NCBI GenBank assembly: GCA_965204535.1
Contig: CBDBEV010000001.1
Location: forward strand, 1,952,001-2,016,000
DNA length: 64,000 bases
Origin: a bacterium
Lineage (GTDB): Bacteria; UBA8248
Reading direction: 5' to 3'
Position numbers and translations under genes: made by a program. The notes below the pieces were generated by a model. The model made no database searches, was not told the DNA's origin, and saw only the letters and a list, made by a program, of their open reading frames with translations. Positions 45,743 to 63,563 of the stretch are shown here, in pieces; within the stretch, counting starts at the first letter, position 1, and each line of letters opens with the position of its first letter.

Positions 45743-47308
45743 TCACATCGGGAATCCCAGCGTCTTCAGGTTCCCGGCGATGGCGGCGTCGAGTTCCTCG
45801 CCCTTTTCCTGCTGCTCCCGAAGCTCCTTGACGAGGCGCTTCATCTTCTCCTCGAACGGCTCGCTATCCTCTTCCTGCGCCTCCGCGCCCACGTAGCGGC
45901 CGGGCGTCAGTACATAGCCATGCTTTTGCACCTCACCCATGCTCGCGCTCTTGCAGAAGCCGGGAACGTCGTCGTATTCCCCGGCATCCTCGCCGCCGCG
46001 CCAGGCGTGGTAGGTATCGGCGATCCGCGCGATGTCCTCGTCCGTCAATTCGCGGTGGGTGCGGTCGACCATGCGGCCCAGCCTGCGGGCGTCGATGAAG
46101 AGGATTTCTCCGCCGCGCTTCCTCTCCCGCGCCAGGAACCAGAGGCAAGCGGGAATCGGTGCCGTATAAAAAAGCTGCCCCGGCAGGGAGACCATGCAGT
46201 CCATGAGTTCCGCCTCGATCAGGTTCTTGCGAATCCCGCCCTCGCCCGACTGGTTCGAGGACATCGAACCGTTGGCCAAGACGAAACCCGCAGCACCGCC
46301 CGGCGCCAGGTGATGAACCATGTGCTGTATCCAGGCGAAGTTGGCGTTGCCTTTGGGCGGGACGCCGTATCGCCAGCGCGCATCGTCCGTGAGCCGCTCG
46401 CCGCCCCAGTTGGAGACGTTGAAGGGGGGATTGGCGAGTATGTAATCCGCCTTGAGGTCCGGATGTCGGTCGTTATGGAAGCTGTCCCCATGGGCGATCT
46501 GCCCTTCGATGCCGCGGATGGCGAGGTTCATCTTCGAGAGCCGCCACGTCGTGTAGTTCGACTCCTGGCCGTAGATGCTGATGTCGCCGCGCGCCCTTCC
46601 GCCGTTGCCGTTGCCGCTTGTGTGCGCGTCGATGAACTCGACCGACTGCACGAACATGCCCGAGGAGCCGCAGCATGGGTCGTATACGCGGCCCCGGTAG
46701 GGCTCCAGCATCTCGACCAGGAGCTTGACGACGCAGCGCGGGGTGTAGAATTCCCCGCCCTTCTTGCCCTCGGCGCTCGCGAACTGCGAGAGGAAATACT
46801 CGTAGACGCGGCCGAGAACGTCCTTCGAGCGGGCGTCCGCGTCGCCCACCCGGATGTTGCTGATGAGGTTGATCAACTGGCCGAGGCGCTCCTTGTCGAG
46901 CGCGGGGCGGGCGTAGTCCTTCGGCAGCACGTCCTTGACCGCCGGGTTCTCGCGCTCGATGGCCGTCATGGCGTCGTCGACGGTTTGGCCGATGGCGGGC
47001 TGCGGCGCTTGGTTCTTTAGATTCGCCCAGCGCGCCTCGCGCGGCACCCAGAAGATGTTCTCGGCGCGGTATTCGTCCGGGTCTTCGGGGTCCGCGCCTT
47101 CTGCCCGCTCGGCTTCCAGCCTGGCGCGCCTTTCCTCGAAGGCGTCCGAGATGTATTTCAGGAAGATGAGGCCCAGGACGACGTGCTTGTACTCCGCCGC
47201 ATCCATCGAGCCGCGCAAGGCGTTGGCCATTTCCCAAAGCTCGCGTTCATAGCCCGTCGTGGCTCCGTCCCCGGCTTCCTGGTTCTTATTCGACCCTGTC
47301 CGCGCCAT
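45743..47308 (-). CDS. hsdM: Type I R-M methyltransferase subunit
   Basis: [40 protein letters not shown]. Confidence 0.97.
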
Positions 47309-47549
47309 GGTTCCTTTATCCCATCTGTCAGGCGTCATCGGTGGATATGTCATTCGCCGCCGGGCAGTTTACAAACCGGGGCGGCCCTTGTCATCCGGGA
47401 AACCCGGTGGGCCGGTTCCTTCTCCGGGAAGTTCTCGTTCGTCGTTCCGGCGAACCCTCATTCATCAATCGGGTTCGACCTCCTCGCCCTGAAAACCAAC
47501 CCCCCTACCCCCCCTTGATAAGGGGGTAAAAAAGAAGCCCCCCCTGCAA

Positions 47550-47735
47550 GGGGTTGTTGAAAAACCCTGCAATGACGGCAACGAGATTCCGGCCTGCCGA
47601 AGGGAGTGTAGGGGCCGCATATATGCGGCCCGTCGTTGGAAGGCAAAAAGGCCGGGTCGCATGTATGTCGGACATATATGTCCGACATACACACAAACAA
47701 ATTTTCCCTCGGCGAGGGGCTTTTTCAACAGACCC
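47550..47735. mobile_element. MITE-like element with terminal IRs enclosing two REP-like perfect palindromes
   Basis: IRs GGGGTTGTTGAAAAACCC / GGGCTTTTTCAACAGACCC; internal GTAG+GGGCCGCATATATGCGGCCC (47608-47631) and the 30-bp palindrome TGTATGTCGGACATATATGTCCGACATACA (47662-47691). Confidence 0.65.
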
Positions 47736-47783
47736 GACATGGGGAGTTGGAGGGTTCGGGGCGGCGGACGACCTGCGGGGCGG

Positions 47784-48203
47784 CTACGGCGCGTCCCAGG
47801 GGTTCACGACGTCGACCTCGAGGCCGTCGAAATCGCGGACGTTTCTCGTCGCAATCGAAAGCGCATGCGCCACCGCCGTGCCCGCGATGAGCGCGTCCCC
47901 CATATCCAGAACGCGGCCCGCGCGATGCGCCCGCGCCCTCAGGGCCGCGGCCCGTGCGGCTTCGGGCCGGCCTACCGGCAGCACCCTGTCCGCGTATTCA
48001 GAGACGAACGCGAAGAGTACCACCCGGATTCCCTCGCGGCGGCGTCCGGGCGGGAGCAGTTCGACGCCGAAGTCCAGCTCGTGCAGGACGACGGTGGAGA
48101 GCCACAGATCCTCAACGTCGGCGAGGAACTCCGTCACCCCCGAATGCGGCGCGTCCTTCGTCAACTCCGAGATGACGTTCGTGTCGAGCAGGAACCCGCT
48201 CAT
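47784..48203 (-). CDS. vapC: PIN-domain VapC toxin
   Basis: FLLDTNVISE, HEL..G, DALIAGTA, IATRNVRDF, VNPW. Confidence 0.92.
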   Translation of the reverse strand: MSGFLLDTNVISELTKDAPHSGVTEFLADVEDLWLSTVVLHELDFGVELLPPGRRREGIRVVLFAFVSEYADRVLPVGRPEAARAAALRARAHRAGRVLDMGDALIAGTAVAHALSIATRNVRDFDGLEVDVVNPWDAP

Positions 48204-48484
48204 TCGGCATCGCCGCCCGCGAAGGGTATCTCTCTCCGGGAGCCTCTCGCCCCCGGAATCTCCAGGTTCGCGCCGCGCGGCATGTTCTCGACGAGCCACC
48301 GCCCCATGGGCTTGCGGGGCGACTCCTTCGCGTACCACTTCCCGGCGGGCACGACCACGAAGGGCCGCCTCGCGCCGATATGCTGCGGCCCCTCCTCCTC
48401 GGCGAGGCGCAACACCTCGGACAGGCGCGCCTTGGCCTCGGCGACGGTCCAGACTCGGCGGGGTTTGGGATGTCGTTCGGTCAT
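48200..48484 (-). CDS. Phd/YefM family antitoxin
   Basis: WTVAEAKARLSEVLRLA..EGPQHI; 4-bp ATGA overlap with vapC. Confidence 0.9.
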   Translation of the reverse strand: MTERHPKPRRVWTVAEAKARLSEVLRLAEEEGPQHIGARRPFVVVPAGKWYAKESPRKPMGRWLVENMPRGANLEIPGARGSRREIPFAGGDAE

Positions 48485-48565
48485 GGCTCCCTCAAGCGAA
48501 AAATATAGTCCAATATAGACTATATTACTGGTCGGCGTCAAGGGGAGGAAAACCACGTGTGGGGA

Positions 48566-48898
48566 CCGCATTTCCCCGCATTTGCGGCGAAGCGCTCATC
48601 GCTTCCTCCCGGCAACCGGAGGAAATTCTCTGCATCCCGTTCGAAACGACCCGCATTTGCCCGCAATTGCCGTCGCGCTGCCCGGGGCGCGAGCGCGTAT
48701 GATGGCGAAGCCGGGCGCTTCGTTCTCAAGTGATATGGAATTTCCGTAAATTCCTGAAAAATCCCGAAAAATCCGATAAATTAACGGGGTATTTCTGAAA
48801 ATTAAATTCTTGGGAAATGACGCCGCGGAATCCGGGCGCAGGAGGATTCTGCCACGGTCGGCCGGCCTCGCCATGACGGCAAATGCGGGGAAATGCGG
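48566..48898. repeat. Three copies (two direct, one inverted) of a CCGCATTTCCCCGCATTTGC(CGTC) motif around an AT-rich phased tract
   Basis: Copies at 48566-48585 and 48651-48674, and inverted at 48875-48898; A-tracts about 10 bp apart at ~48740-48810. Confidence 0.7.
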
Positions 48899-49361: not shown

Positions 49362-50645
49362 TCAGGTGGATATGGAAGCGGTTCCGCCCATGTAGGGGCG
49401 CAAGGCCTCGGGTATCGCCACGGAGCCGTCCGCGCGCTGGAAGTTCTCGAGAATCGCCACCAGCGTGCGGCCTACGGCGAGGCCCGAGCCGTTCAGGGTA
49501 TGGACGAATTCGGGCTTCGCACCCGCTCCGGGGCGGTAGCGGATGCCCGCGCGCCGGGCCTGGAAGTCCTCGAAATTGCTGCACGAGGAGATCTCGCGGT
49601 AGGTGTTCTGAGACGGCACCCAGACCTCGATGTCGTACGTCTTGGCGGCGGAAAAACCCAGGTCTCCCGCGCACAGCGTGACGACGCGGTAGTGGAGTCC
49701 CAGGCGCTTCAGGATTTCTTCCGCGTCTGAGGTGAGGGTCTCCAATTCCTCGTAGCTCGTCTCGGGGCGGCTGAACATCACGAGTTCGACCTTGTTGAAC
49801 TGGTGCTGGCGGATGAGGCCGCGCGTGTCCTGGCCGTAGGAGCCGGCCTCGCTCCTGAAGCAGGGCGTATAGGCCGTGTACCTGAGGGGAAGGTCCTCGT
49901 CGCTCAGGATTTCGTCGCGGTGGATGTTCGTGACGGGCACCTCGGCGGTGGGGATGAGGTAGTATTTTCCGTCGTTTACGCGGAAGAGGTCTTCCTCGAA
50001 TTTGGGCAGCTGGCCCGTGCCCGTCATGGCCTCGGGGTTCACCATGAACGGCGGCAGCCACTCGGTGTAGCCGTGCTCGTTCGTGTGCAGGTCGAGCATG
50101 AAGTTGATGAGGACGCGCTCCAAACGCGCGCCCGCCCCCCGGTAGAGCGCAAACCGCGCGCCGGCGATCTTGGCGGCGCGTTTCATATCAAGTATTTCCA
50201 GGGCTTCGCCCAGCTCATCGTGCGCCCTGGGTTCGAAGTCGAAAACGGGTTTCTCGCCCCAGACCCGCACGAGGGCGTTGTCCTCGGCACTCCGGCCTTC
50301 GGGCGTGGTCTCATGCGGCGCGTTGGGGAGTTCCAGGAGGATATCGTTTTGTTTTTGTTCGAGTTCCCTCAGTTCTCCCTCCATGGACTTGGCCTCGGCC
50401 GTCAAGCGCTGGTTCTCGGCCAGAAACGCCTCGACCTCCTCATCGGACGCCTTGTTCCTTTTGAGTTCGCCGATTTGCTTGCTGCGCTTTCTCACGTCGG
50501 CCACCCGGCTTTCGACCTGGTGGGTCAAATCCCGCCTCCGGGCGTCGATTTCCAGCAAGCCCGGGAGGTCCCAATCGCCGCCCCTTCGCGCGAGGGCGCG
50601 CGCCACCGCGTCGGGGTCTTGTCTGATGAGGCGAATGTCGAACAA
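49362..50645 (-). CDS. serS: Serine--tRNA ligase
   Basis: [63 protein letters not shown]. Confidence 0.98.
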
Positions 50646-51791: not shown

Positions 51792-52074
51792 GCCTCCGAA
51801 TTGTCGGGTCTGGTTCGATTGTTCTGACAGACCCTATCCAATTCGATTCAGCAAGTAAAACCTATGCCGGGTGATATCGTTTCCCAGGGTTTCAGCCATG
51901 AACTTTGTGTGGAAATGCGCCTGTTGAGAAAAAAAGGGCTTTCAGCCCACAATAGATTCGGGCGTGGGGCAGCACTACGATTTCTCAGGTTTTTTCAGAA
52001 ACTTGCCCACACGAGTGTCGTTGGGTGAAATGAAACTGGCCAAGCAGGCGGGCCGCCGTAACAGGAAGCATGGA

Positions 52075-53355
52075 ATGCGCTTGAAACTCGGGATCTGTAT
52101 CGTTTCCGTTGTTTTTCTCACTCTCCCGGCGTTTTCCCGGAAGATATCAAAAAGCTTCATCTTTCCGTCCGTTCAAGCTTCGGAAAAAAAGGGGATTCCC
52201 GGCAAATGGAAGCGCTGGCAGGATTTCGTGAACGATCACTTCCGCTATCCGTTGCCTCCCATGGGCGAGGCGCCGGAATCATACAGAGGTGCTGAACGCT
52301 CTCTTTCGCCGGAGCATTGCGGCAGTTGTCATCCCGAGCAGCACAAACAGTGGAGAACCACGCTTCACGCCAAGGCGATGAGTCCGGGCATATACGGACA
52401 ACTCGTCGATATGTGGAAGACGAATCCCAAGCAAGCGCAAAGCTGCAACGAGTGCCACGCGCCCTTGGCGGAACAGCAAAAACGCGCGAAGCAGAGCGCG
52501 GACCCTCTGGCGAGATGGCGGAAAAACCCGGTCTACGACCGAAAGCTGGAGATGAGTGGACTGGCCTGCGCTGCATGCCATGTGCGCGATTGGCGCGTGC
52601 ATGGTCCCCAGAAGAAAGAGACCCCCGAAGGTGTAGACGATACGACAGGCAAAGGCCCGCACGCCGGTGTGGAGCGCACGCCATTTTTCAGCCGCTCTGA
52701 ATTTTGCATGAGTTGTCACCAGCACACGTTTCCCGGACCGAACGGGAAATCGATTCAGAATACCTACAACGAATGGAAAAACTCGCTTTGGGGCAAGGAG
52801 GGCGTCGCCTGCCAGAGTTGTCACATGCCCGACCGGGCGCATCTTTGGCGGGGCATACATGACAAGGATATGACGCAAAGCGCCGTGCAAATCGACGTTT
52901 CGCTGGGAGCGGAAGCGTCCGAAGAAATCGTGACGGCCGAGATCAAGCTCACGAACTCGGGCGCCGGCCATTATTTTCCCACCTACATCACGCCCTCGGT
53001 GGACGTGATCACCGAACTTGAGGACAAGAACGGGCGAAGAATACCGGGCTCAAGGCAAATCAACGTGATAGAGCGGAAACTCTCGTCCGATTTCAGCCGT
53101 GAAATCCATGACACGCGCATTCCCCCTCAAGAATCCATCACGTTTCGATACAGGAGAGGACGAAGAGAGGATGCCGCGAGGTTCAGGGTGCGCGTTCACG
53201 TGCGGCCCGATGCCTTTTATCACAATTTCTTCATTGAATTTCTCAAAAATCCCGACATCTCGAACTTGTCACGTAAGCTCATCATGGAGGCCCGAGACAT
53301 CGCGGCGTCATCGGGCTTTGACATTTATGATGAGAAACTCGAATTGAAAAACTAA
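52075..53355 (+). CDS. Periplasmic pentahaem c-type cytochrome (c554-like family)
   Basis: Signal peptide; five CxxCH motifs (CGSCH, CNECH, CAACH, CMSCH, CQSCH); C-terminal N.GAGHYFPT. Confidence 0.88.
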   Translation: MRLKLGICIVSVVFLTLPAFSRKISKSFIFPSVQASEKKGIPGKWKRWQDFVNDHFRYPLPPMGEAPESYRGAERSLSPEHCGSCHPEQHKQWRTTLHAKAMSPGIYGQLVDMWKTNPKQAQSCNECHAPLAEQQKRAKQSADPLARWRKNPVYDRKLEMSGLACAACHVRDWRVHGPQKKETPEGVDDTTGKGPHAGVERTPFFSRSEFCMSCHQHTFPGPNGKSIQNTYNEWKNSLWGKEGVACQSCHMPDRAHLWRGIHDKDMTQSAVQIDVSLGAEASEEIVTAEIKLTNSGAGHYFPTYITPSVDVITELEDKNGRRIPGSRQINVIERKLSSDFSREIHDTRIPPQESITFRYRRGRREDAARFRVRVHVRPDAFYHNFFIEFLKNPDISNLSRKLIMEARDIAASSGFDIYDEKLELKN

Positions 53356-55751: not shown

Positions 55752-56495
55752 CTATCTTACTTTCAATTTCTCGAAAAATCCGCGAATTCGCCTGGCGTTC
55801 GCACCAATATCGCCGACGCCGACGCGGGATTTCGAGCGGATGTCGAGGCGCGTCGTTCCGCTGCTCGACGTGATCCGTATGACGATATCGTCAACGAACC
55901 CGTACCAGAAAGTCGTGTCATAGGCCTCGATGCGTCCTTGATCCGGTTTTGATGACACCACATGCCAGCCCATGGCGTGCGCGGCGTCCTGAGCGCGCTT
56001 GAAAACTTCTTCTTTTGAAGTTTGGAAAATAAGTGGTTTGATATCCGGATACGCTTTTTTCTGCAGCCGCGCGATGCGCGTCCCCTCGTAGGCGGGCGGG
56101 TTCTTCGCCCCTGTCCTGAGCGTGAGAACGGCTTGAAAGACGGGCGGATTCCGGGTGTCCGTCGTGATGTCGTGAATCTTGGGCACCCGTCTCGCGATCT
56201 GCATGTGCGCGTGAAGAAAGCCCGCAACGATGAAGCCGAGTGCGATGCCGAGCGCGGCGGCCAACGTCTTGACCCTGGAGGCGTCGCGCAAAGCGAACAA
56301 GCCACCCGCCATGGAGACGGCGACTGAGATGAGAGCGATAACGGATGCGGACTTGAAAATCTGGAACCCCGTGCTGAAATGCCACAGTTCCCAGCGATGG
56401 CCCAGACCCGACGCCACGGCGGCCAGCGCGCAAGCACCCGATATGAACAGACCCACATACGATATGGATGAGAGGGATTGTGATTTGTCAGCCAC
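55752..56495 (-). CDS. DUF1499 family membrane protein
   Basis: Three TM helices, PKIHDITTD, QKKAYPDIKPL, FWYGFVDDIVIR, DIRSKSRVG..DIGANARRI. Confidence 0.85.
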   Translation of the reverse strand: MADKSQSLSSISYVGLFISGACALAAVASGLGHRWELWHFSTGFQIFKSASVIALISVAVSMAGGLFALRDASRVKTLAAALGIALGFIVAGFLHAHMQIARRVPKIHDITTDTRNPPVFQAVLTLRTGAKNPPAYEGTRIARLQKKAYPDIKPLIFQTSKEEVFKRAQDAAHAMGWHVVSSKPDQGRIEAYDTTFWYGFVDDIVIRITSSSGTTRLDIRSKSRVGVGDIGANARRIRGFFEKLKVR

Positions 56496-57087
56496 GTATT
56501 TTCTTTTTCAACCTCTCGATGGCATCCTGCAATTCTTTCGGTCCTTCGGGATTTTGCTTCACGTGCCCGAAGGCGTAGTTGATCGAGTTGGCGAAGTTTC
56601 TGTAGGAGACGGCCGCGATAATGTCCACGATGTTCTCCTCGCTGAAGCCGGCGGCCCTCAGACTTTCGATGTCCGTTTTTTGCATCGAGTGAGGCGTGTG
56701 GGTGAACTTCTCCGCATAGGCGAGCATGGCACGGTCCGCCGGGTCGAGGATTCCCGCGCGCTTCGGGTCGTCCAGCACCTCGGCTACTTCGGCGATGGAG
56801 GCGTCATCGCATTCGTCACGGAACAACTGCCCGTGGTTCATCGCTCAGCCGTATCACCCCCCATGGGCCGCCACGTAGAAGGCGAGCAACTCCGCCCGCC
56901 TCGTTCCGAGGCTCGAGCCTCCATGAACGGCGTGGCGGAGCGTTTCACGCCCGGCCAGAATATCGGGCCTCCTGCCCATCTCGAGAAACATCCTGGGAAT
57001 CGGTTTTCTCGCCTTGCGCAGGTCTTCGATAATTTCTTTTGTGGCTCCCTCCGCTACATACGGAGAAATGGGTTGAATCCAACTCAT
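56488..57087 (-). CDS. AhpD/CMD-family peroxidase-related selenoprotein candidate with a UxxU motif (two in-frame TGA read as Sec), 199 aa
   Basis: The 77-aa and 117-aa ORFs share a frame and are joined by GGG-TGA-TAC-GGC-TGA-GCG-ATG, i.e. G-U-Y-G-U-A-M-N-H, at the AhpD CxxC...H position. Strong RBS only at 57087. Confidence 0.82.
56817..56835 (-). promoter_or_regulatory. Putative bacterial SECIS hairpin
   Basis: mRNA CACGGG-CAGUUGU-UCCGUG stem-loop starts 9 nt after the second UGA (18 nt after the first), with a G in the apical loop. Confidence 0.55.
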
Positions 57088-57278
57088 GATGCTCCCCTTT
57101 AATGATAGGGAAAGAGGTTCTCAAGCATAGGAGAAATACGCAAGAGATACGTTCCACGTCATTGCTTTTTTTCTCTTGCTGCTGATCGCATTCTTCAGCA
57201 TAGATTGTCTTGCTTGTCATGGTAGTCGTGTTTCATTATCAACGTGTTAGATTTGTTTTTGCCTTGTCGGAGGACGCC

Positions 57279-60472: not shown

Positions 60473-61630
60473 TCATTTTGCAGACAGCCTTTCTATCAAT
60501 CCCCCGAGCAGCGCGCCTCTTGGCGCGAGCGAATCGAGTTCCAGGTATTCCTCGGCAGTATGCAAATTTCCACCTACGGGTCCCAGGCCGTCGAGAACGG
60601 CAACTCCAAGCGGGGAGAGGTAATTTCCGTCGGAGCCCCCACCGGTGGGGCCGTGCTTGAATTCGACGCCCGCATCCAGGGCGATTTCTGCCGCGATAGA
60701 GAGGAGTTTTTCCGTCCCATGGTTGAATTCCATGGCGGGTCTTCCGCTGATTTTTTGGAATATCGAGCGTGTCCCGTCGATGTGCGATTCGGAAATAATG
60801 CGATGCAGTTCATCCGTCATGGAATCGAGAGTCGCTTGTTGGTCTGCGCGCACTTCAATGTGGCAGGAAGCCTCGTCCGCCACGATGTGCGGCCTGTGCC
60901 CACCCGAAAGACCGGTGATGTTGATGGTCCCGTCTCTCCGTTCCAGGTTTTGGATGGCCACCATTTGGTGGGCGAGTTCGTGCACGGCGCTTCTGCCTTT
61001 TTGAGGTTCTACCCCTGCATGGGCCGAGACGCCGCTGACGAGCAATTTCCCGTAGCAGCTCCCTTTTCTCGAGGATACGATGGAGCCGTTTGCACGGCCG
61101 GACTCGATGATCAATGCCGCGGCGGCGTCTTTGCCGATTCGCTCTATCACTTCCCTCGAAGAGGGATTCCCGCGTTCTTCATCGGTGTCGTATAAGATAC
61201 TGATTTTCCCGAATTCCTCGAATCCTTCGGCCAGTAGCGCCTCCATCGCGAATTGACAAACCACGAGACATCCCTTCATGTCGGCCACCCCGGGGCCGCA
61301 GGCAATCCCGTCTTTTATGGTGAACGGTCTTTGCGCGGCGGTGCCCTCGGAGAAAACGGTGTCGCAATGGCCGATGAGGAATATATGAGGGCCGTCTTTT
61401 CTTACGCCGTGAAACGTCGCCAGAAGGTGGTCCCCCGTTTCATGCGTGCCGGGAATCATCTCTACGTCAGCTCCCATGGCGCGATATTTTTCAGCGAAAT
61501 GGGAGGAGACGGCGTTCGTTCCCTTGCTGGGAAACGTCGGGGAATCGATGCTCACCACGTGGGCGATTTGCTCGATGATTTCCTCTTGTCTGGCTTCAAG
61601 CGCTTTTCTGATGGCGGCCGCGCCGATCAT
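60473..61630 (-). CDS. M20 family metallopeptidase (carboxypeptidase G2-like)
   Basis: GHCDTVF, GPGVADMKG, DEERG, AHAG, GGGSDGN, LDGLGPVGG..HT.EEY. Confidence 0.92.
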   Translation of the reverse strand: MIGAAAIRKALEARQEEIIEQIAHVVSIDSPTFPSKGTNAVSSHFAEKYRAMGADVEMIPGTHETGDHLLATFHGVRKDGPHIFLIGHCDTVFSEGTAAQRPFTIKDGIACGPGVADMKGCLVVCQFAMEALLAEGFEEFGKISILYDTDEERGNPSSREVIERIGKDAAAALIIESGRANGSIVSSRKGSCYGKLLVSGVSAHAGVEPQKGRSAVHELAHQMVAIQNLERRDGTINITGLSGGHRPHIVADEASCHIEVRADQQATLDSMTDELHRIISESHIDGTRSIFQKISGRPAMEFNHGTEKLLSIAAEIALDAGVEFKHGPTGGGSDGNYLSPLGVAVLDGLGPVGGNLHTAEEYLELDSLAPRGALLGGLIERLSAK

Positions 61631-62412
61631 TCGTTTCGCCCCTTGCTGTAAAAATTTCCCGCAACAGAATCTCCCGTGAGCAGGTAATCGTAAATGCCGT
61701 CGGGTACGGCCTCAAATATCGTCTGAGCTTCCTGAAGGGCTTCTTGGGAGGTGCAATGGCTCAGGTAGAGTATCCGCTTTGCGCCTTTGGGAAACCGATT
61801 CGGGTAGCTCTCCGGATGACTCGCCAATCTCGCCAGATGATGTGCGCCGATAACTTCCCCGGCTTCTAAGCCTGCGATGGTGCGAACTTTTTCCATGCGA
61901 TGGACGATTCGCTCATCCGCTCTTCGCCCGATTGCGGCGAGTCCCAGCACGAGTACGCAATGAGTCGCTCCTTGGGGTATGACCGGCTCATCTGGCCCCG
62001 GGGCCTTGATGAGTCGTTTTCTGGCGCCATCGGTTTTCACGACCATCACGCCGTGAAAGCCCGAGGCGCGCAGGGCCTCCACTTGGTTCGCCTCGAGGCC
62101 GCGAAACATGTTCTGGGGCAGTTTTTTCTCTACCCAGACGACGGCGCCGCGCCCCGACCAATCACGGGCGACGGATTGCAGTTCAGCGTGACCCTCCTCG
62201 CTCAACAGCACTGGCGGCGCGTCTTCGCCGCCCAGGGCGTGGAGGTTCGTCGTGCTGGTGATAATGACGGGAAACGGCTCATCCAGCATCTCCCGGATGA
62301 GCCGCTTCATGAGCGTGGCCTTGCCGCCGGCGCCCATGACGCAGACCATGTCTCCGGGGGCGATGTCCATCAGCGGGCGCAGCTTTTGCGAAGAAAATGG
62401 TTCCATGGGCAT
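61627..62412 (-). CDS. yqeC: Selenium cofactor biosynthesis protein YqeC-like
   Basis: MGAGGKATLM, IITSTT, DGARKRLIKAP..DEPVIP, VLGLAAIG..VHR. Confidence 0.75.
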   Translation of the reverse strand: MPMEPFSSQKLRPLMDIAPGDMVCVMGAGGKATLMKRLIREMLDEPFPVIITSTTNLHALGGEDAPPVLLSEEGHAELQSVARDWSGRGAVVWVEKKLPQNMFRGLEANQVEALRASGFHGVMVVKTDGARKRLIKAPGPDEPVIPQGATHCVLVLGLAAIGRRADERIVHRMEKVRTIAGLEAGEVIGAHHLARLASHPESYPNRFPKGAKRILYLSHCTSQEALQEAQTIFEAVPDGIYDYLLTGDSVAGNFYSKGRNE

Positions 62413-62414
62413 CT

Positions 62415-63563
62415 TCAAGCCGCGGCACGATAGATTCTCTCGATGTCCTCGAGCGAGAGCTCTTTGGGATTGCAGCTTAAAAGACGCTCTAGCTTGAAGG
62501 CGGCTTCGGCCAGCTCCGGGATGGCGTGTGCGGGGACGTCCACTTCGCCGAGCCGGGTAGGCACCCCGCAATCGCGACAAAGTTTCTCGACCGCGCTGAC
62601 GGAAAGCCCGGCGGCTTCAGCCGTGGACATGTCATCGATGGATTCGCCCAGGATCCGGGCGATGCGGGCGAACTTCTCAGGCGCAGCGGCGTGGTTTTCC
62701 TTCATGACGTGGGAGAACATCAGAGAATTGCTGACCCCGTGGGGAATATGAAACCGCGAGCCGAGCGGATACGCCAGTGCATGGATGGCGCCCGCCCCGG
62801 CTCCTGCGAGCGCGACGCCGCCATAGTATGAACCCAGGGCCATGTTGGTTCTGGCCTCGATGTCGCTTCCGTCGTCACATACGCGCCTCAATGAGCGGGC
62901 GATGAGTTTCATGCCCTCCAGGCTGTACATCTCGCTCAAGGGCGTGGCGTTTCTGGCCACGTAGGTTTCCAGGCAATGCGTGAAGGCGTCCACACCGGCG
63001 GCGGAGGTGACTTTCGGCGGTGCGGAAAGCGTGAGATTCGGGTCGACGATGGCGGCGAACGGGATGACGTGCGTACTCACGATGGCCAGTTTCACCTGTT
63101 CTTCCGGCACAGAGAAGATGGCGTTGGGTGTGGCCTCGGCGCCCGTTCCACTCGTGGTGGGCGCCAGAATGGTGGAGCGGCCCGGTTTCGGCACGAGTTC
63201 TATGCCCAGATAATCCCTGGGCGCGCCGTCGTTTCCCAGCAGAACGCCGATGGATTTCGCCATGTCCATCGAACTGCCGCCCCCGACCCCGACGACGAGG
63301 TCGAAAGCGCTGTTTTTGAATTCATTATATGCATTTTCGAGATCGCCGATGGCGGGCTCTGGCGGGCACTCATCGTATATCGTTACTTCGACGCCGGCCT
63401 CCTTGAGAGGAGCCAGCGCCATGTCCGCCACGCCTGCGCCTCTCACACCCTTGTCCGTGAAGAAAAGCGCGTTGCGGGCGCCTAAAAACGCCGCTTCATC
63501 CTTGATTTTCGCTATGGTTCCGAGGCCGAACCAGGTTCGTTTCGGGTGGCGTATGCTGTACAT
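62415..63563 (-). CDS. Iron-containing alcohol dehydrogenase
   Basis: VGGGSSMDMAK, PTTSGTGAEAT, IVDP.LT, DAFTH, IHALAYPL...HIPHG. Confidence 0.93.
   Translation of the reverse strand: MYSIRHPKRTWFGLGTIAKIKDEAAFLGARNALFFTDKGVRGAGVADMALAPLKEAGVEVTIYDECPPEPAIGDLENAYNEFKNSAFDLVVGVGGGSSMDMAKSIGVLLGNDGAPRDYLGIELVPKPGRSTILAPTTSGTGAEATPNAIFSVPEEQVKLAIVSTHVIPFAAIVDPNLTLSAPPKVTSAAGVDAFTHCLETYVARNATPLSEMYSLEGMKLIARSLRRVCDDGSDIEARTNMALGSYYGGVALAGAGAGAIHALAYPLGSRFHIPHGVSNSLMFSHVMKENHAAAPEKFARIARILGESIDDMSTAEAAGLSVSAVEKLCRDCGVPTRLGEVDVPAHAIPELAEAAFKLERLLSCNPKELSLEDIERIYRAAA

Follow-up and report, generated by a model that had tools for sequence, protein, structure and literature searches.

In this study, we found that the minus strand of the window (the whole stretch of 64,000 nucleotides analysed) carries at 57087-56488 what is almost certainly a single read-through gene, coding for an AhpD-like protein with a UxxU motif. 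As judged from the sequences, selenocysteine (Sec) is very likely inserted at both UGAs, and by analogy with AhpD enzymes a redox relay through a diselenide is somewhat favoured. The reading as a whole, an AhpD-type redox protein in which a single hairpin directs Sec to both active-site UGAs and which cycles between selenol and diselenide, is probable.

Reading frame, conservation and origin of the UxxU gene

As a preliminary description of this DNA had stated, the ORFs at 56854-57087 (77 aa) and 56488-56841 (117 aa) lie in one frame of the minus strand. Their junction is TGA(56856-54)-TAC-GGC-TGA(56847-45)-GCG, and the frame from 57087 to 56488 is interrupted by these two TGAs only. Read through, it gives a 199-aa product with U78 and U81, and the translation contains ...RRAELLAFYVAAHGG-U-YG-U-AMNHGQLF.... 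The ribosome-binding site reported for the upstream start, AAAGGGGAG, is present at 57100-57092, 4 nt 5' of the ATG. No match to a sigma-70 promoter or a terminator was found. The features are listed below; all lie on the minus strand.

57092..57100, minus: ribosome-binding site, 4 nt ahead of the ATG; GGAG(G) stands here in most orthologs
56488..57087, minus: full gene with two in-frame TGA codons, AhpD-like (TIGR01926), 199 aa (translation, HMM, model)
56890..56892, minus: Glu66, -12 from the first Cys position, the spacing of the AhpD proton-relay Glu (relay comparison)
56863..56868, minus: Ala74-His75, diagnostic of the UxxU clade (23/23 UxxU; Thr-Ile/Leu in 8/8 CxxU sisters)
56854..56856, minus: first TGA, U78; sister paralogs have Cys, TGC/TGT (DNA reading, alignment)
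56845..56847, minus: second TGA, U81, where AhpD-like selenoproteins usually have Sec (alignment, literature)
56833..56835, minus: His85, +4 from the second Cys position, relay-His spacing; the codon also opens the hairpin (relay comparison)
56817..56835, minus: SECIS-type hairpin, a stem of 7 pairs with one bulge and AGUU as the loop, whose G is at +18 relative to U81 and +27 relative to U78 (folding, conservation)
56821..56839, minus: alternative hairpin, weaker and mutually exclusive with the main one, loop GGGCA at +22 from U78 (folding)
56488..56490, minus: true stop, TGA; TAA in 17/23 orthologs (ortholog alignment)
55752..56495, minus: DUF1499 gene, downstream, with an 8-nt overlap of the stop; a neighbour in 19/19 same-genus loci and in the g3 locus

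Standard annotation had been expected to split such a gene, and public gene calls do so, into 77-aa and 117-aa 'hypothetical' pieces. Both exact fragments are present in the public protein collection, where 25 of 25 matches were C-terminal fragments of 117-120 aa; the two named ones were 'hypothetical protein' from Nitrospinota. Since the public gene calls found cut the gene in this way, the redox inventory of the lineage is under-annotated.

TGA was present at both sites in all 24 orthologs whose DNA was read (23 aligned and a 24th read separately), at identities down to 51%. All belong to one family (f1), with relatives labelled Nitrospinota. Full-length two-TGA matches occurred in 24 of the 51 phylum genomes (host genus 19/23, g3 1/1, g2 4/5), again all in family f1; because the genomes are kin, these counts are not independent events. 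A '2 TGA' row in G025 proved to be CxxU plus the terminal stop and was left out of the count. Terminal stops varied among the 23 aligned orthologs (TAA 17, TGA 6), and the internal TGAs were invariant. The spacer between them was Tyr-Gly throughout, with synonymous changes only. Codon 83, the internal ATG83, was ATG in 19, GTG in one and a non-start codon in 3, so the start codon is not conserved. Pooled pairwise dN/dS was 0.137 for codons 2-77 and 0.166 for codons 82-199 among the 19 same-genus orthologs, and 0.173 before and 0.255 after the motif among all 23. These ratios indicate that purifying selection acts on both gene halves, and the same-genus values showed no relaxation past the first TGA, a check that the preliminary description had proposed.

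A metagenome search with a pattern permitting Cys or TGA at either site gave 12 loci, 8 UxxU (four of them alike in the region shown) and 4 CxxU; neither CxxC nor UxxC was found among the 12. Contigs from 3 RNA-library runs of two studies, labelled sponge and coral metagenomes, cover both codons with no other letter there; as contigs, they do not show transcription, strand or level. One database fragment on a 943-nt contig, P0220, has Gly at position 78; it is 1 of 15 members listed from a cluster of 47. Three genomes of the host genus, 99-100% complete, gave no ortholog with this query, and the G010 ortholog carries an in-frame deletion of codons 10-114, the locus lying on two contigs (L151 and L152; G010:C4 and C5). 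These absences indicate that the gene is dispensable. A plasmid search gave distant matches only (best 32%), and sampling of other phyla comprised 3 genomes. The UxxU variant is so far seen in one bacterial family among those searched.

The same host genome carries a CYGU paralog that is 48% identical. A profile search of 1.84 billion representatives returned a full-length Cys/Cys relative, P0027 (CIGC), together with fragments ending at CTG, which are consistent with CxxU. The best 150 profile matches gave 190 aligned stretches, 48 of which did not cover the motif; Cys/Cys was found in 86 of the 142 that did. Cys or TGA thus stands at both positions in the CYGU paralogs, the CIGC outgroup and these Cys/Cys stretches, as the preliminary description had anticipated. 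In the tree including P0027, from which 14 rows had been dropped (12 near-identical UxxU and 2 CxxU), the UxxU rows formed one clade with support of 100/99, nested among CxxU rows; in a first tree without a close outgroup, support for their monophyly was 52/65. That the two paralogs arose by a recent duplication inside the genus was rejected (p-AU 0.001). With CxxU in the closest paralog and CxxC in the outgroup, a stepwise gain of Sec is suggested; the simplest reading of these sequences would be CxxC to CxxU to UxxU, with one gain. Outside the UxxU lineage, clusters P0048 and P0106 represent a sister subfamily that is cut at the same place; C-terminal fragments of this subfamily bear the label Betaproteobacteria, and another cluster has N-terminal fragments that terminate at CTG.

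The hairpin and predicted selenocysteine insertion in the host

The hairpin at 56835-56817 folds as previously described, with -7.6 kcal/mol in a 36-nt window. It is a modest structure: isolated it gives -6.1 kcal/mol, and the threshold of the SECIS model is -7.5. Its loop (AGUU), stem (7 pairs) and spacing agree with that model. The published bacterial consensus has a loop of 3-9 nt, a stem of 4-16 bp, G in the first two loop positions and a distance of 16-37 nt from the UGA (PMC13188914). The distance of the loop is 16 nt for U81 and 25 nt for U78, both within this range, in agreement with the SECIS-compatible placement claimed earlier.

The shuffle z-score of the hairpin was unremarkable (-0.37), so that support for it comes from conservation. 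Synonymous variation was the lowest of the gene at codons 82-90 (0.096 versus a median of 0.393). Pairing was kept in 98% of cells, compared with 25-43% when the structure was slid, and the hairpin arose in 1.1% of 5000 synonymous recodings. In 15 UxxU rows, RNAalifold and pair counts gave one-sided changes only, with no compensatory change on both sides of the stem. Mean fold energies of the same window were -6.5 kcal/mol in UxxU (9 distinct), -3.0 in near CxxU (8), -9.2 in far CxxU (16) and -0.8 in CxxC (4); the far CxxU sequences are well folded, CxxC is nearly unfolded, and UxxU is stronger than its near CxxU sisters. These results indicate that the hairpin is under selection. In CxxU sisters of an AT-richer genus (L056, L057, L068, L078, L153), the hairpin is weak and its loop lacks G, outside the SECIS consensus.

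By our own hairpin heuristic, the loop G of 38 host selenoprotein genes stood at +18 to +22 in 32, at +26/27 in 4 and further out in 2. With U81 at +18 and U78 at +27, the element is tuned to U81, and its register for U78 is unusual but not unprecedented. Eight AhpD/YciW paralogs in the host (e.g. C2:819171, 940876, 2805867) have a common SECIS-like signature, loop GGUC at +22, which differs from the +18 register of the subfamily of the UxxU gene. The alternative hairpin came out as the most favourable fold of its window in 20 of 23 UxxU rows and in 0 of 8 CxxU rows; it is a weak lead only, since it also arose in 22% of synonymous recodings that kept the main hairpin. A bolder proposal, which we consider unlikely, is that the mRNA refolds between overlapping SECIS hairpins (+22 for U78, +18 for U81), switched by the ribosome, and that the diselenide AhpD acts as a reductant of low potential for the 40 or more selenoproteins of the proteome.

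The host genome (4.56 Mb, 95.7% complete) contains selA, selB and selD, all over cut-off, selD itself with one in-frame TGA. A single tRNA-Sec gene with a UCA anticodon lies 6.5 kb before the window start. The Sec machinery on which the preliminary description had made its proposal depend (selA/selB/selC/selD) is therefore all present. A second Sec-like tRNA was found neither with Rfam nor with an nhmmer HMM of five tRNA-Sec genes, and an ARAGORN scan of the host at lowered threshold for a hidden suppressor tRNA gave noise only. There is a degenerate second tRNA-Cys-like gene at G000:C1:762222-762296 on the minus strand; its anticodon is GCA and its variable arm is short. In five relatives, no tRNA-ReC-like gene was found; 6/6 matches over cut-off had a UCA anticodon and were called SeC. 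As the host genome is 95.7% complete, absence of tRNA-ReC from it is not proven. Within the window, yqeC (selenium cofactor biosynthesis, over cut-off) lies at 61630-62580 (minus). An ORF at 49362-50645 (minus) is presumably seryl-tRNA synthetase-like.

The host has 13 TIGR01926 matches, with one TGA in 10, two in one (the UxxU gene) and none in 2. A first coding-potential scan gave 496 TGA candidates dominated by antisense frames; redone, it gave 83. Among the 40 examined, an NCBIfam domain extends across the TGA in 28 and a Pfam domain in 2 more; the remaining 10, gene junctions or without explanation, were left aside. By this count, the host has some 40 selenoprotein candidates besides the UxxU gene. 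The ten richest genomes in BSepDB include three 'Nitrospinota' ones of GTDB phylum UBA8248, with 48-54 genes (PMC13326102). The host candidates (L100-L133, L013, L015-L027) include three deiodinase-like, five OsmC-type, GrdA/GrdB-like, three PrdB-like and three UGSC genes, together with several Prx/Trx, rhodanese, DsrE, DUF3179 and about 12 AhpD/YciW-like CxxU genes. L120 (G000:C2:1923732-1924214, minus) has a TIGR01244/Blh-type sulfur transferase domain with the TGA inside the match (FVHUKATGRAG). L132 (G000:C2:72904-73404, minus) is a GrdG-like frame (reductase component B alpha) between GrdA- and GrdB-like genes; its TGA, 36 codons ahead of the next stop and outside the matched domain, may be a true stop or Sec.

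Two other readings of the TGA codons were weighed against Sec at both. The first TGA could be a real stop, giving either a split two-chain protein or a pseudogene that re-initiates at Met83. The public gene calls give exactly these two fragments, the host genome has similar TGA..TGA-x-ATG junctions at other places that look like gene boundaries, and one relative has lost the gene by deletion. Against this, neither TGA is ever replaced by TAA or TAG, the spacer kept Tyr-Gly, codon 83 is not a start in 3/23 orthologs, dN/dS is low in both halves, and one family model (TIGR01926) spans the junction; we regard a real stop as extremely improbable. It is also quite improbable, if less so, that one UGA, most likely that of U78, is read as Cys, for example by tRNA-ReC (SelC*), which would make the protein an ordinary CxxU AhpD-like selenoprotein. 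tRNA-ReC was reported in about 56% of UXXU hydrogenase genomes, where the authors warn that UGA may mean Cys (PMC13582414); U78 is off the main hairpin register of the host, and the degenerate tRNA-Cys-like gene is there with its GCA anticodon. But that gene has a short variable arm, the single tRNA-Sec-like gene over cut-off has no second copy by the five-gene HMM, and the six matches in the relatives are all UCA and called SeC. Moreover, reversion to TGC/TGT would be expected if Cys sufficed, and it was seen in 0/24 orthologs.

Fold, proposed mechanism and alternative functions

With both U entered as C, the protein scored 88.0 bits against TIGR01926 (cut-off 81.8) and 73 bits with the stops left in. 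Pfam CMD (PF02627) gave 22.8 bits (E 9e-5; gathering score 23) and 28 bits for the CxxU paralog. Scores below cut-off were obtained with NF053654 YciW-related (29.3 bits versus 310) and NF041238 CFYUT (22.9 versus 175). A profile from 24 aligned sequences matched 10 PDB sequences, the best being 6K40 (E 4e-23). The AlphaFold2 model had a mean pLDDT of 86, and 94-95 at residues 71-90 around the motif; a fold search with it found 6K40 best, followed by 2PRR, 3C1L, 2PFX and 2OYO, with Bmp8 and PA0269 lower. The AhpD-type identity proposed at the outset is borne out by the TIGR01926 score, by the relay spacing given below and by the AhpD fold of the model, and the protein is predicted to have the all-helical AhpD fold.

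The relay spacing Glu-x11-Cys-x2-Cys-x3-His is found as Glu66/U78/U81/His85. In PA0269, the relay is Glu36/Cys48/Tyr50/Cys51/His55, and the Tyr/His position is called not absolutely conserved (PMC3141380). This third motif position is Gly80 here and Tyr in 75 of the 86 CxxC matches. Ala74, His75 and Ala82 are specific to the UxxU clade and changed together with U78.

We propose the following mechanism. SelB-Sec-tRNA on the hairpin would deliver Sec at U78 first, with the loop 25 nt away, and three translocations later a second SelB complex would reload on the hairpin, still folded, to serve U81 at a distance of 16 nt. U81, activated through Glu66-water-His85, would attack a peroxide or the disulfide or selenenylsulfide of a partner; U78 would then resolve the U81 intermediate to a diselenide, which a low-potential donor such as a dihydrolipoyl protein would re-reduce. 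In work on M. tuberculosis AhpD, the second motif position is reportedly the attacking residue. By analogy, U81 as attacker fits the placement of Sec in the CxxU relatives. SelB is recruited early, while the SECIS is still far from the ribosome, and E. coli recodes a single UGA at 30-40% efficiency (PMC4513850); at such an efficiency per UGA, two in series could yield little. AhpD is reduced by lipoyl proteins and acts on peroxides or AhpC (review PMC8945050). Diselenides have very low potentials (PMC2397514) and are hard to reduce, which counts against diselenide cycling.

Among the neighbours checked, no reductant gene adjoins the UxxU gene. DUF1499 and a Mo-enzyme subunit lie downstream and thiE/thiL are divergent, with synteny mainly within the genus; DUF1499 was not within the examined flanks of the g2 loci. 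These neighbours give no clear lead on substrate. A multiheme cytochrome c gene at 51964-53355 (plus) is convergent with the Mo-enzyme subunit gene. The ORFs at 45743-48571 (minus) we take to resemble a type I restriction-modification methylase and a PIN-domain toxin-antitoxin pair.

Two further readings accept Sec or selenolates at both positions and differ in function. Bmp8 is a debrominase of the AhpD fold, and sponge and coral habitats are rich in organohalogens. The protein could be a reductive dehalogenase like Bmp8 with two Sec inserted, in which a selenolate attacks the halogen as in deiodinases. Bmp8 (6OHI/6OHJ) is matched by sequence (E 2.8e-4) and fold (E 5e-6), the host has three deiodinase-like selenoprotein candidates, and the RNA runs with the gene are labelled sponge and coral metagenomes. 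However, the matches to peroxidase-related proteins are much stronger (E 4e-23 to 1e-15) and the genes checked included no neighbour of dehalogenation type, so that we hold dehalogenation to be distinctly unlikely. Even less probable, and in our judgement very improbable, is a role of the two selenolates in binding or buffering a soft metal or metalloid rather than in cycling as a redox pair. This would agree with the cataloguing of another bacterial UxxU family, NF041115, as metal-binding, with the appearance of His75 together with U78, and with the syntenic Mo-enzyme subunit gene in the genus, but the Glu/His relay of redox AhpDs is intact and the neighbours checked include no metal-resistance genes.

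Comparison with known systems

The preliminary description had treated UxxU motifs as rare. They are less exotic in bacteria than that implied, as several bacterial UxxU families are published: UxxU is catalogued in Prx-like (PF00578), NF041115 and FmdB-like (TIGR02605) families, whereas the catalogues consulted give AhpD-like, CMD-like and AhpD-related selenoproteins as CxxU only, in all four AhpD/CMD entries (PMC13188914, PMC9312934, PMC2398784). SelL contains a diselenide and is found in marine bacteria as well (PMC2397514). Nor is one SECIS for two UGAs a new idea, having been proposed for 16 UXXU group 4 [NiFeSe] hydrogenases (PMC13582414). In the literature searched, outside which most subscription journals fell, we found no description of a UxxU AhpD, and no experimental test of one bacterial SECIS serving two nearby UGAs. 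The BSepDB pipeline handles multi-Sec genes and covers such genomes (PMC13326102); the searched part of one of its supplements has no AhpD or UxxU text, and its online entries may already include UxxU AhpD proteins.

A bacterial SECIS sits at a constrained distance behind its UGA, and this gene is a natural test of one hairpin serving UGAs 9 nt apart. As it is small, and as its genome also holds a CxxU paralog 48% identical to it and there is a CxxC outgroup, the CxxC, CxxU and UxxU forms can be compared directly in decoding and redox chemistry. If the proposed reading is true, diselenide catalysis would extend to the helical AhpD fold.

With other bacterial UxxU proteins (Prx-like, NF041115, FmdB-like, hydrogenases, SelL), the gene shares two UGAs three codons apart. 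Unlike the thioredoxin-type, metal-binding and hydrogenase families, it has the motif in an all-helical AhpD fold, with a CxxU paralog in the same genome. Its best sequence and fold matches are the AhpD-like protein of D. radiodurans (6K40) and the JCSG structures 3C1L, 2PFX, 2PRR and 2OYO (E 4e-23, TM 0.67). The relay spacing is common to both sides, but the 6K40 group are Cys/Cys enzymes, 22-27% identical in the fold alignment, and unlike AhpD relay enzymes with Tyr the UxxU protein has Gly at that position. The D. radiodurans AhpD-like mutant is H2O2-sensitive, and its CxxC is needed (review PMC8945050). Bmp8 belongs to the same fold class at 17% identity and is Cys-based. The closest system is the AhpD-like CxxU selenoprotein family ('AhpD-like 1', TIGR01926/COG2128; PMC13188914, PMC2398784), with which the protein shares a TIGR01926 score above cut-off and predicted Sec placed second in the motif; its SECIS-type hairpin opens on the His codon, a feature also of 16 distant CxxU relatives. 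It differs from this family in that the first Cys is also UGA (UYGU), giving two predicted Sec. With a UxxU rather than a one-Sec CxxU motif, it is filed as a variant: the UxxU protein is a predicted two-Sec form of the catalogued one-Sec AhpD-like family.
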